A DNA stretch of 64,000 bases, from the IMG/VR virus record IMGVR_UViG_3300042256_000013, positions 160,001 through 224,000 of that record, one strand, 5' to 3'. Shown in pieces: positions 381 through 64,000 of the stretch. A model generated the notes under the pieces. It was not told the origin of the DNA, did no database searches, and saw only the letters and a list, made by a program, of their open reading frames with translations. Position 1 is the stretch's first letter, and each line of letters starts with the position of its first letter. A program made the position numbers and the translations under genes. The stretch comes from a virus. Taxonomy: Duplodnaviria; Heunggongvirae; Uroviricota; Caudoviricetes.

Positions 381-893
381 TTAAATCCACCGCGTTTCTT
401 CTGGTTCAAATGCACGACTCAGATAGAAAACTATTGTTCCATCATCTAATACTTTTGAACTTTTAGGAACAAACACATTGGTAGTACTAGCATGTACATC
501 GAAGAAGGTATCACATTCGTAATCACCATCAATATTACTCAAGATAATTTCATCTACAAAAGGTAGTGCTGATTGATATATAGTAGCTCCACCTATAACA
601 ATAATATTGTCATTGTAACGCAAGAAATCTTGAAGACTATTTTTATGAATAAAGATAACATCACGATGTTTATTAATTTCATCATCTGAAACTTTACGTG
701 AAGTTACTACGATATTCATACGGTCAGGAAGTGGCTTGCGTGGAAGACTTTGCCAAGTATTGTATCCCATAAGAACTTTCTGACCTTGTGTTTCAGCTTT
801 GAAGTGTTTAAAGTCATCAGAACTGTGCCAAGGTATAGTACCGTTTTTACCGATTCCATTTTTAGAATCAGTACATAAAATCATTTTATTCAT
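381..893 (-). CDS. frd: Dihydrofolate reductase
   Basis: [52 protein letters not shown] motifs. Confidence 0.96.
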
Positions 894-1266
894 TTTTATG
901 TTCTTCCACTTTGTTATATCCGTGAACGAGAATCATTACACGGTAGAATAGAACTCCAGTAATTGCTATCAGTACTGAATAGTTCTGAAGTAATACTCCA
1001 ATGATAATTGCATGACAGATGTATGAACCGATAAAATTAATTAATCGTAGTTTATATTCTGTATAATCGAAAACTAATTCAATAGCTTCCTTGTACTCAG
1101 GTTTAATATTAGGATAGTGTTTAATCCATGTATCTATCCTGAATGTTAAAAATAATGCACTCAAAGATAAGAAAAGGTACAATGATAGAAGATAATTCAC
1201 ATAACCTGCATAATAAAGCAGCGAAGTGATTATGATCATGATAATGTTATAAATAGTTGGAAACAT
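886..1266 (-). CDS. Hypothetical membrane protein
   Basis: 126 aa with 3-4 hydrophobic segments; preceded by promoter at 1294-1322. Confidence 0.7.
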
Positions 1267-62169: not shown

Positions 62170-64000
62170 TGGCATCGCAACAACCTAATGGTTCAGGAAC
62201 CAGTAATAGCATGGCTTATGCTAAGAACCAGGCTGCACGTTTCAATCCACAATTCGTACAATTAGCTACAGTTATGGATAATCGTGATCCTACAAGAACT
62301 GGTAAATTAAAAGTTTGGGTTCAGAATTCACAATCAGATTCTGATTCTAAAGGTTCATGGTTAACAGCATCGTATCTATCACCATTCGCTGGTAGAACAA
62401 CTGGTACACCTGGTGCTGAATCTTATTCACAATTCCCTAAAGGATATGGTTTTTGGGCAGTTCCACCAGATGTTGGAACAACCGTTGCTATATTCTTTGC
62501 AAATGGTAATATTCATGATTGTTGGTGGTTCGCATGTGGTTATGATGACCGCATGAACACAATGGTTCCAGGTAGTGCAACTCAGTTGATGCCAAATAGT
62601 GGATATGACATGGCAGTACCTATTACTGACTATGACCGTAATACAATACAAACTGAAATGGATCAAAAATACGTTAACGTTCCATTGGTAGCAGGCTTAA
62701 CTAAGCAAAATCTTCTTTATGACCAACAAAAAGGTGCAGCGAACCGTTCAAGTACTCGTCAAACTACAAGTACTGTATATGGTATGTCATCACCTCGTGG
62801 TAATAGTTTTATTATTGATGATGGATATACAGATGCGGAATTAACTGCACCAAATTGGGATGAAGACCCTGATTCGTATCAAAACACACAATTAGGTAAT
62901 GCAGTTAACGATACAGCGGTTGGTCAGCGTACCAATGAAGGTATTGTTTTGCGTACACGTAGTGGTGCACAATTCTTACTTTCAGAAGATAAAGGTAACG
63001 TATTTTTAATTAACCGTGATGGTACTGCACGTTTTGAAATGACTCCTGATGGACAAATTACCGTTCACTCAGATAAAAGTATTACAATTCGTACTGACGA
63101 AGATTTTAATCTAACAGTTGCTAAAGATATGAACGTTGAAATTGGTGGAAACTTAAACGTACAAACTCAAGGTAATACTAAATTAAATCTTGTAGGTAAT
63201 CTTGATGCTATTGTTAATGGACAAGTAGTTATTAACACTGGTGCTGATTTACGTTTAGTAGCAGCAGCAAGTATTCGTATACAAAGCGGTTCCAGTACTA
63301 ATATAACTTCGGGTGACAATACTGCAATAAAAACTGGTTCAACATTTGATGTAACTGCACCTTCTTCAGCTAATATAACTGCTGGTGGAACAAACTTTAC
63401 TATTGCTGGTACAGTTGATAGTAGTTCACAAATTAATGCTCCAGATTTCGTATCACCTGCTGTTGGTTTAAACAGTCATATTCACTTGCATGAATCATTC
63501 TCGTCACCAGACAACCATAGTAACGCAATGGCACCGCCAGTGCAAGGTGGCGGTAGAAATAATGCACAAGCAGCCTCTGCACCGCAGCCTGCGAACGATG
63601 TTGCTCCAGTGACTCCTACCGTTACACAACAAGATAACGTACAACATATTAACAGCACGACCGAAGTTGGTCAAGCCCTAACGCAAGATTTAGTCGTGTC
63701 AGATGGCGGTGAGGATAACACAACCGTTGAATCTTACACAACAACATATGAAGGATTACAACTATTCATGCCAGTGACTGGAACTATTCGTGAGTTCGGA
63801 TATTGGGGTAAAGGCGTTCCGACTCAAAGTGGTGGAACTACTAATAGAAATGGTTGGATTATTCAAGCTAAAGGCGATGTAGTTGCTCCAGATGGTGGTT
63901 TAATTACTAAGATGGGTAATGGTGGAGTTATTATTACACATCCAATTGGTTACAAGAGTATTTTCTATGATATTGACGTAACTGTAATGAATAGAGATAC
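62169..64000 (+). CDS. Baseplate central spike (gp5/VgrG-like), runs off window end
   Basis: Own translation: MASQQPNG...VMDNRDPTRTGKLKVWV...GYGFWAVPPDVGTTV (OB fold), beta-helix repeats, HIHLH tip motif, then M23-like segment; absent from the ORF track. Confidence 0.85.
   Translation, partial: MASQQPNGSGTSNSMAYAKNQAARFNPQFVQLATVMDNRDPTRTGKLKVWVQNSQSDSDSKGSWLTASYLSPFAGRTTGTPGAESYSQFPKGYGFWAVPPDVGTTVAIFFANGNIHDCWWFACGYDDRMNTMVPGSATQLMPNSGYDMAVPITDYDRNTIQTEMDQKYVNVPLVAGLTKQNLLYDQQKGAANRSSTRQTTSTVYGMSSPRGNSFIIDDGYTDAELTAPNWDEDPDSYQNTQLGNAVNDTAVGQRTNEGIVLRTRSGAQFLLSEDKGNVFLINRDGTARFEMTPDGQITVHSDKSITIRTDEDFNLTVAKDMNVEIGGNLNVQTQGNTKLNLVGNLDAIVNGQVVINTGADLRLVAAASIRIQSGSSTNITSGDNTAIKTGSTFDVTAPSSANITAGGTNFTIAGTVDSSSQINAPDFVSPAVGLNSHIHLHESFSSPDNHSNAMAPPVQGGGRNNAQAASAPQPANDVAPVTPTVTQQDNVQHINSTTEVGQALTQDLVVSDGGEDNTTVESYTTTYEGLQLFMPVTGTIREFGYWGKGVPTQSGGTTNRNGWIIQAKGDVVAPDGGLITKMGNGGVIITHPIGYKSIFYDIDVTVMNRD

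Follow-up and report, generated by a model that had tools for sequence, protein, structure and literature searches.

The palindromic hexamer AGTACT is strongly enriched in a 64,000-nucleotide stretch of viral DNA (hereafter the window), which comprises bases 160,001-224,000 of IMG/VR record IMGVR_UViG_3300042256_000013, a single contig of 371,104 bp from a virus of the Caudoviricetes, and the trait belongs to the whole genome and to a clade of related phages rather than to the window alone. The word is enriched independently of codon usage, its sites are conserved among relatives, its flanks are dyad-symmetric, its excess is restricted to one phage clade, and it takes up constant positions within predicted early promoters. 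From these observations we infer that a protein binds AGTACT and that binding has an effect, and we tentatively propose that the hexamer, together with its preferred octamer form CAGTACTG, is the selected recognition word of a putative clade-specific, dimeric DNA-binding factor. As such, it is an iterated palindrome like the cyanobacterial HIP1 (highly iterated palindrome 1), but one that occurs in a phage clade, against a background of extreme palindrome avoidance, and that is tied to promoters.

Abundance and independence of codon usage

A full count of the window gave 128 copies of AGTACT (483..63299, in genes of both strands), as compared to 17.45 ± 4.20 in 100 dinucleotide-preserving shuffles, the largest of which held 30, and to 21.5 expected from base composition. 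This 6-7-fold excess is stronger than the approximately 120 copies and 5-fold enrichment reported in a preliminary description made from the sequence alone. AGTACT ranks first by over-representation among all hexamers of the window (z = 23), with the second-ranking palindrome at just 1.6×. Under a maximal-order Markov model 117 copies would be predicted, but this null is not independent, as the 5-mers AGTAC and GTACT, which overlap, share the same excess. Across the genome, 1,087 copies were found with 125 expected (8.7×), or one per 342 bp, at a density that is higher in non-coding (4.0 per kb) than in coding DNA (2.8 per kb). Within the window, 121 sites lie in called open reading frames (ORFs), in each of the three frames and in genes of either strand (64 as AGT-ACT for Ser-Thr, 41 as xxA-GTA-CTx for Val-Leu and 16 as xAG-TAC-Txx for x-Tyr), and seven lie outside the called ORFs, where 0.9 were expected, at 17150, 31165, 31179, 46296, 53506, 53518 and 53650; the enrichment in every frame, on both strands and in intergenic DNA is thus as first described. 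Genome-wide, the split among coding frames is 470/323/138.

For the 562 ORFs that were called genome-wide by a simple longest-ORF rule (90% coding), synonymous codons were shuffled within each gene, a procedure that preserves the protein, all dipeptides and codon usage. In the window, 118 coding sites were observed and 29.7 ± 4.7 expected (the largest of 300 shuffles gave 44), and in the genome 931 were observed and 240 ± 13 expected, the latter falling to 137 ± 12 when codon order was shuffled instead. The excess therefore persists under shuffling that preserves codons and dipeptides, and the dinucleotide, synonymous-codon and codon-order shuffles together rule out chance, composition or codon usage as its cause. 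The Ser-Thr dipeptide is written as AGTACT in 470 of 753 instances (62%; 113 or 15% expected), and the dipeptides that the palindrome can encode are themselves over-represented (ST 1.49×, VL 1.32×, QY 1.38×), as compared to 1.00-1.02× for TS and LV. Thus, selection on AGTACT shapes even the protein sequence by way of its dipeptide content.

The spacing of the sites is near-exponential genome-wide (coefficient of variation, CV, 0.95), and a search for helical phasing or regular spacing found none, the distance classes being flat except for promoter pairs 20-21 bp apart. As such, the periodicity check proposed in the preliminary description revealed nothing beyond near-random placement, while its comparison to HIP1, a genome-wide iterated palindrome working on the DNA level, is supported.

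Preferred octamer and flank symmetry

The preference extends to the bases next to the hexamer and is graded, with C > A > T > G at position -1 and the mirror image of this order at +1. The best 8-bp palindromic form, CAGTACTG, occurs 170 times genome-wide, with 4.0 expected (42×), and TCAGTACTGA occurs 39 times with 0.4 expected. The ten flank combinations form a graded series with CAGTACTG at the top (42×) and GAGTACTC at the bottom (2.2×); in three other genera, CAGTACTG is enriched 33-85×, and GAGTACTC ranges from 0.9× to 6× across the genomes. Among sense-oriented coding sites, the base at -1 is C in 368 and G in 81, and the complement of the base at +1 is C in 378 and G in 50. Because these two preferences agree, the signal is read on duplex DNA and not on mRNA, and the word and its flanks have the dyad symmetry of an operator for a dimeric transcription factor.

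Distribution among phages and hosts

Based on its DNA identity to Erwinia phage Kaldavass and Xanthomonas phage XbC2 (approximately 90% for the window; 90-91% in local matches, 89-90% across 48 kb of alignment), to Pectobacterium phage CBB and Cronobacter phage GAP32 (approximately 81-82%) and to Serratia phage BF (approximately 77-79%), the genome is assigned to the Rak2-like jumbo myoviruses of the Mimasvirus type. The public sequencing runs that contain it are wastewater and bioreactor metagenomes, with no RNA run among those listed. The enrichment is common to nine related phages of at least four genera, namely Mimasvirus, Eneladusvirus, Asteriusvirus, Alcyoneusvirus and phage XaC1, and amounts to 7.6-11.5× in the four genomes that were counted in full. 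Besides the present genome, these are 121Q (903 copies, 118 expected, 7.6×), RaK2 (937, 117 expected, 8.0×) and XaC1 (1,356, 118 expected, 11.5×), whereas the sister Vibrio phage 2.275.O, whose DNA polymerase is 51% identical, has 81 copies with 115 expected (0.7×). Counts of CAGTACTG and of its reversed-word control give the same picture: 194 and 3 in Kaldavass, 176 and 2 in XbC2, 151 and 2 in CBB, 130 and 2 in GAP32, 72 and 3 in BF, 194 and 3 in 121Q, 247 and 1 in RaK2, and 119 and 0 in XaC1, as compared to 10 and 4 in Vibrio phage 2.275.O and 2 and 3 in Atu_ph07, both non-enriched.

In unrelated phages of the same hosts, the word stays below its control (T4 20/35, T5 17/32, rV5 8/36, Vi01 3/49 and Ea35-70 36/108), and Escherichia coli K-12 carries 78 copies of CAGTACTG in 4.64 Mb (control 60), which is about chance. 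This corresponds to one octamer per 59 kb in the bacterium and one per 2.2 kb in the phage, a 27-fold higher density. Since the relatives are enriched and the sister Vibrio phage, Atu_ph07 and the unrelated phages of the same hosts are not, the cause is carried by the phage clade and not by the host.

Phages usually deplete hexamer palindromes, and the contrast that the preliminary description drew with this habit proved to be real and extreme. In the 371-kb genome, 19 of the 64 hexamer palindromes have zero copies and 27 fall below 0.1×; GATATC is found 3 times with 125 expected, and CTGCAG, CCATGG, GGATCC, GGTACC and CAGCTG are each absent with 39 expected. GAATTC, CACGTG and AACGTT are at or above chance, and the tetramer GCGC has no copy in the window (1-64000). 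Between 16 and 24 of the 64 palindromes have zero copies in this genome, 121Q, RaK2 and XaC1, and none does in the sister Vibrio phage. Phage CBB is reported to infect several enterobacterial genera (PMC5259590), and this host range fits restriction avoidance by unmodified DNA.

Conservation and turnover of sites

To follow individual sites, 48 kb of the window were aligned with Kaldavass, XbC2, CBB, GAP32 and BF, and phase-matched neighbouring hexamers served as controls. Site retention exceeded that of the controls in all five relatives, with 87% against 60% in Kaldavass, 63% against 35% in CBB, 45% against 25% in BF, and 83% against 61% and 54% against 34% in the other two, so that the conservation on which the preliminary description had made its claim depend is indeed present. 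By triplet parsimony, AGTACT was lost at a rate of 0.141, compared with 0.240 for 179 further words of identical composition (12th lowest of 143), and its gain from one-mismatch neighbours was not raised (7/1035 = 0.0068 against 0.0102 pooled). Turnover is considerable, as only 25 of 196 scorable positions are common to all six genomes. Given this combination of retention above controls, low loss, unraised gain and site turnover, the pattern looks like weak purifying selection spread over many sites and not like a conversion process.

Early promoter modules

The densest stretch of sites and the pairs 20-21 bp apart led to a module, AAA-AGTACT-TGACA/TGCAA-N9-10-(t)C-AGTACT-G-TATAAT, that recurs in four genera. 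Its first site shares its final T with the start of the -35 hexamer, and a single base separates its second site from the -10 hexamer. Eight such modules are found in this genome, all outside the window (genome positions 4021, 6890, 8100, 10740, 11239, 13598, 14254 and 17942), along with at least 17 in RaK2 (226-244 kb), 4-5 in 121Q (74-148 kb) and 7 in XaC1 (1.8-22 kb). The positions of AGTACT are constant in these modules and the spacer sequence varies, and each of the four genomes shows a peak at 20-21 bp in its histogram of gaps between adjacent sites. In addition, a second promoter class has AGTAC directly beside its TGAAAC/TGGAAC -35-like boxes in 24 cases. As expected of an operator, the word thus keeps a fixed place relative to the -35 and -10 boxes in four genera while neighbouring bases change, and judging from this anatomy the modules are early sigma70-type promoters with operator-like AGTACT positions.

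In every one of the four genomes, sites are 2-3× more frequent in the 20-40 kb block that carries these promoters than in the remainder. Outside this early block the density is even, at 2-3 per kb; genes that the genera have in common carry 2.42 sites per kb, and the others 3.09. Sites occur in every gene class, and only four genes of at least 900 bp have none.

Candidate readers

The genome encodes three DNA methyltransferases, and the suggestion of the preliminary description that AGTACT is a methyltransferase target fared differently for each. An N6_N4 methyltransferase (genome 302990-303850, minus strand, outside the window) with an SPPY motif of the N4-methylcytosine (m4C) type has M.PvuII as its best solved relative. 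It is present in CBB, GAP32 and BF and absent from the enriched 121Q, RaK2 and XaC1 by protein search and family hidden Markov model (HMM), and its homologues, which are 50-59% identical, are orphans encoded on contigs of prophages or phages, none of them beside a ScaI-type nuclease. Thus, this PvuII-like enzyme does not accompany the enriched site as the cognate methyltransferase of a ScaI-type system would, and it was rejected on the basis of the three enriched genera that lack it. The C5 methyltransferase, found in CBB, GAP32, 121Q and RaK2, was likewise rejected as it is missing from the enriched XaC1 and BF. As a separate observation, the genome encodes the PvuII-like enzyme while CAGCTG has zero copies.

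The third enzyme, a 182-amino-acid (aa) N6-adenine methyltransferase of the Dam family (PF05869/TIGR01712; genome 357848-358396, minus strand, outside the window), occurs in each of the nine enriched genomes that were tested; Vibrio phage 2.275.O and Atu_ph07 lack it. Nucleases for GATC and TGATCA are blocked by Dam methylation, and the genome does not avoid these two words, whereas GGATCC and CGATCG are purged. The nearest outside homologues of the enzyme are the packaging-module methyltransferases of Lactococcus 936 phages (48% identity), of which M.Phi93DAM methylates GATC according to single-molecule real-time (SMRT) sequencing and DpnI/DpnII digestion (PMC4190342). Given this pattern of tolerance and this homology, GATC methylation fits the genome, and the phage enzyme is probably specific for GATC and not for AGTACT. 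Its co-occurrence with the trait carries little weight because 39 other genes show the same pattern of presence and absence. As such, the methyltransferase idea stands only in so far as a Dam-like enzyme is universal among the enriched phages, and fails for the m4C and C5 enzymes.

That set of genes was obtained from the 157 ORFs shared with 121Q, RaK2 and XaC1, of which 40 gave no hit to the Vibrio phage by tblastn. Pfam and PHROGs scans of these 40 put a name to few of them, namely ParE-like, TelA, DUF4326, Nudix-cREC, Ig-like, zinc-ribbon, Dam-like methyltransferase and virion proteins, and an Atlas look-up of a basic 181-aa protein was without result. The search of the full genome that the preliminary description had called for therefore yielded three methyltransferases but named no evident sequence-specific binder among the clade-specific genes.

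The preliminary description had put forward a DsbA-like protein of the window as a candidate binder. This 100-aa Phage_DsbA-like protein is encoded at window positions 40514..40816 on the minus strand, directly upstream of the DNA polymerase gene. Its Atlas feature score to PF11126 clusters is 0.96, with PF11126 on 13 of 44 profile relatives, and hhalign matches it to T4 DsbA with a probability of 92.8% (E = 4e-7, 70 columns), although the Pfam HMM alone does not reach it. The structure model is a two-helix hairpin (predicted local distance difference test, pLDDT, 83.5) for which a fold search gave no significant match among solved structures; by sequence, T4 DsbA is without a solved structure. 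On these profile matches, it is a genuine, distant member of Phage_DsbA, the family of the double-stranded-DNA-binding late-transcription regulator of T4. The family assignment thus held up and the protein is a legitimate candidate, while nothing links it to AGTACT and homologues are found in non-enriched phages. In T4, dsbA instead adjoins an ORF resembling rnh (RNase H).

Discussion

We tentatively favour a mechanism in which a dyad-symmetric (dimeric), sequence-specific factor encoded by the phage clade would read AGTACT on duplex DNA, with sites favoured in proportion to their match to CAGTACTG and held by weak selection at about 1,000 places. At early sigma70-type promoters, two copies 20-21 bp apart lie one against the -35 and one against the -10 box, and with the sites adjoining these boxes the bound factor would occlude or modulate host RNA polymerase. 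The approximately 1,000 other copies might make the unmodified phage DNA distinct from host DNA and act as a self-mark or coat across the genome. A site at which a phage protein binds, which was among the possibilities raised in the preliminary description, hence stays the best reading and now has the promoter anatomy in its support. More speculatively, and improbable in our own estimate, Rak2-like phages, without modified bases or a phage nucleus, might write their identity into sequence, with the reader of this self-tag both gating early promoters and letting protection, transcription and nuclease sparing discriminate self DNA.

Several points weigh against a clade-specific binding factor. 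As the gain rate is not raised, the dynamics measured in the conserved core explain only part of the enrichment, and the excess of near-cognate words could represent decayed sites instead of graded affinity. The scans of the 40 clade-specific genes name no evident sequence-specific DNA binder, a protein of the HU/IHF type was sought in the genome and none is encoded, and the DsbA-like ORF is in the same place in the non-enriched Vibrio phage 2.275.O (L131:1414-1701:+), its family being present in T4 as well, so that its presence does not explain the trait. The self-mark role is something we only infer, and the sites are spaced nearly at random and without phasing. Moreover, an array of 12 perfect tandem 10-bp units of AGTACTGGAT (genome 19058-19173, outside the window), which lies inside a 0.5-kb cluster of approximately 27 sites, was ruled out as a conserved iteron. 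It is missing from all five close relatives (Kaldavass, XbC2, CBB, GAP32 and BF) and is given little weight for that reason.

Among the alternatives, we rank a methylation mark ahead of a word for a replication, recombination or packaging enzyme, followed by repair bias, a host factor and an RNA signal. If AGTACT were the target of a phage methyltransferase, selection would maintain an epigenetic mark, either as a promoter switch that distinguishes injected, fully methylated DNA from new DNA or for a methyl-directed process that needs dense sites, as with Dam and GATC in E. coli. Adenine methylation changes the strength of Dam-regulated promoters, and the presence of sites within promoters, a density of one per 340 bp that resembles that of GATC in E. 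coli, and the occurrence of the Dam-family enzyme in all nine enriched genomes and not in Vibrio phage 2.275.O or Atu_ph07 would all agree with such a mark. We nevertheless consider it unlikely, as the m4C enzyme is missing from three enriched genomes and the C5 enzyme from two, relatives of the Dam-like enzyme are of the GATC type and 39 other genes share its distribution, and protection by methylation predicts site neutrality rather than 8-fold enrichment or graded flanks. Somewhat less probable still is that the word serves as the recognition or loading sequence of a phage DNA-metabolic enzyme (a primase, topoisomerase, nickase, recombination nuclease or packaging motor) and is dense to allow efficient replication, recombination or packaging of 370 kb. 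The signal is on the DNA level, palindromic and thus usable on both strands, roughly uniform, conserved, clade-specific and present in every gene class, and the window encodes a DnaG-type primase, a DnaB-type helicase, UvsX/UvsY and an SbcCD-like nuclease according to annotations of relatives. However, the non-enriched Vibrio phage has these replication genes too, with just 40 of the 157 genes common to the enriched genera undetected in it, the fixed positions at -35 and -10 are left without explanation, and cut sites are expected to erode by gene conversion. Known primase words are 3-5 nucleotides long, and the known Chi and KOPS signals are asymmetric.

A mutation or repair bias, by which very-short-patch-like repair or biased gene conversion would create AGTACT much as Vsr enriches CCWGG in E. 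coli, would affect coding and non-coding DNA alike and shape dipeptides, as is seen, and the genome encodes a C5 methyltransferase, the enzyme with which Vsr is usually paired. Yet one-mismatch neighbour words are not depleted, AGTATT/AATACT, the deamination product, being at 1.09×, and with the gain rate likewise unraised, conversion of the very-short-patch type was rejected; the C5 enzyme is missing from the enriched XaC1 and BF, and neither the promoter positions nor the graded 8-bp symmetry would follow, which makes a repair bias improbable. A host factor as the reader, either SlmA, whose site GTGAGTACTCAC has an AGTACT core, or host RNA polymerase, is suggested by the enterobacterial hosts and by the adjacency of the motif to the -35 and -10 boxes used by host sigma70 polymerase. 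The SlmA site requires G and T at positions 1-2 and a purine at position 3 (PMC3020112), but only 2-4 copies of GTNAGTACTNAC are found per genome, about chance for approximately 1,000 cores, and of the four bases at -1, G is favoured least. With these flanks missing, the word depleted in five unrelated phages of the same hosts and E. coli at chance, a host-driven cause was rejected, and we regard it as very unlikely. Finally, an RNA signal AGUACU, for instance a cleavage or binding site that sets mRNA lifetime, might be read from the location of 88% of the genes on one strand and from the early region being densest in sites. An RNA signal need not be a palindrome, however, and the flanks of sense-oriented sites are mirror-symmetric, while enrichment is highest in non-coding DNA, including the untranscribed parts of promoters upstream of -35; of all the explanations considered, we give this one the least credence.

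A recognition word for a clade-specific dimeric factor can be compared to several known systems. HIP1 (GCGATCGC) is alike in being a short palindrome with a many-fold genome-wide excess in all coding frames and non-coding DNA, beyond codon usage and shared by a clade, and individual AGTACT sites are in addition conserved above background within their clade. HIP1 differs in that it resides in cellular genomes, whereas AGTACT is found in phages that purge other palindromes and has fixed promoter positions. HIP1 also contains the target of resident methyltransferases, and for AGTACT no methyltransferase with both a matching distribution and a plausible specificity was found. Chi (GCTGGTGG), KOPS (FtsK orienting polar sequences) and the uptake sequences (uptake signal sequences, USS, and DNA uptake sequences, DUS) are likewise over-represented oligomers under weak selection that are read by proteins and can mark own DNA, the reader of AGTACT being putative. 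They are, however, asymmetric and skewed by strand or orientation, and AGTACT and its preferred flanks are palindromic, nearly randomly spaced and without a linked translocase or uptake system, which speaks against the Chi/KOPS-like signal considered in the preliminary description.

TF1 of Bacillus phage SPO1 distinguishes phage from host DNA, prefers sites in early promoters and damps early transcription, and thus provides a functional analogy for the proposed mechanism, though only that. TF1 is of the HU type and reads hydroxymethyluracil DNA, whereas here no HU/IHF-type gene is present and the signal is a sequence word in apparently unmodified DNA. The Dam/GATC system (Dam, SeqA and MutH) resembles AGTACT as a short palindrome every few hundred bp, also within promoters, with a Dam-family enzyme in every enriched phage, but GATC is near chance in E. 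coli and not 8-fold up, and the Dam-like enzyme of the phages is most likely GATC-specific. The SlmA site GTGAGTACTCAC is also a palindrome with an AGTACT core and is bound by a dimeric helix-turn-helix protein, but its required outer G-T/A-C bases are not enriched in the phage, which favours C and not a purine beside the core. A search of a paper library found no publication linking AGTACT or CAGTACTG to Rak2-like phages; the description of phage CBB reports RpoD-like promoters and methyltransferases and does not mention the palindrome (PMC5259590).

Phage genomes are the textbook case of palindrome avoidance, and this clade takes avoidance to an extreme yet keeps one word at 8-11× and its octamer at 33-85×, under a selection that is strong enough to bend codon choice and dipeptide content. 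The 8-bp bait, the defined promoter module and the 40 clade-specific genes provide a concrete and inexpensive experimental handle on the regulation of these phages, approximately 80% of whose genes are without known function. If the self-mark were true, it would represent a novel means by which a virus whose DNA is unmodified tells itself from its host, a sequence-encoded counterpart of the hydroxymethylcytosine of T4; should AGTACT instead prove to be epigenetically marked, it would be the first HIP1 counterpart in phages. In addition, the density of AGTACT or CAGTACTG could be used as a one-line identifier of clade members in metagenomes, and digestion with ScaI and RsaI becomes informative on the DNA state of these phages.

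Individual features of the window

According to annotations of its relatives, the window holds the replication and head core of the genome, with primase, helicase, UvsX/UvsY, terminase, DNA polymerase, capsid, portal and SbcCD-like nuclease. The octamer CAGTACTG occurs 11 times (span 970..56620), with starts at 970, 5676, 20747, 21772, 29212, 32256, 37091, 44132, 50758, 54950 and 56613.

The E. coli Chi octamer GCTGGTGG has 25 copies (9 + 16) genome-wide, with approximately 2 expected, and is similarly enriched in 121Q (29), RaK2 (18) and XaC1 (21), with a weaker excess in the Vibrio phage (15 with 3.4 expected). This excess may be a by-product of the preferred codons GCT and GGT.

The close pairs of sites and the two-arm hairpin listed in the preliminary description are all present. 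One pair, 7 bp apart, is AGTACTAAGTACT within a coding region (33772..33784, sites 33772 and 33779), and another, 12 bp apart, forms a two-copy repeat (AAAGTACT..AATT) (53506..53523, sites 53506 and 53518) in the large non-coding gap of the window, where Tandem Repeats Finder reports a repeat at 53504-53528. Because the word is self-complementary, any close pair of AGTACT makes a stem. The hairpin at 31161..31186 on the minus strand, with AGTACT in each arm (31165 and 31179), has a 10-bp stem and a 4-nucleotide loop followed by U5 on the gene strand. With a folding energy of -11.5 kcal/mol (z = -3.42) that was equalled in 0 of 200 shuffles, it looks like an intrinsic terminator in the folding model.

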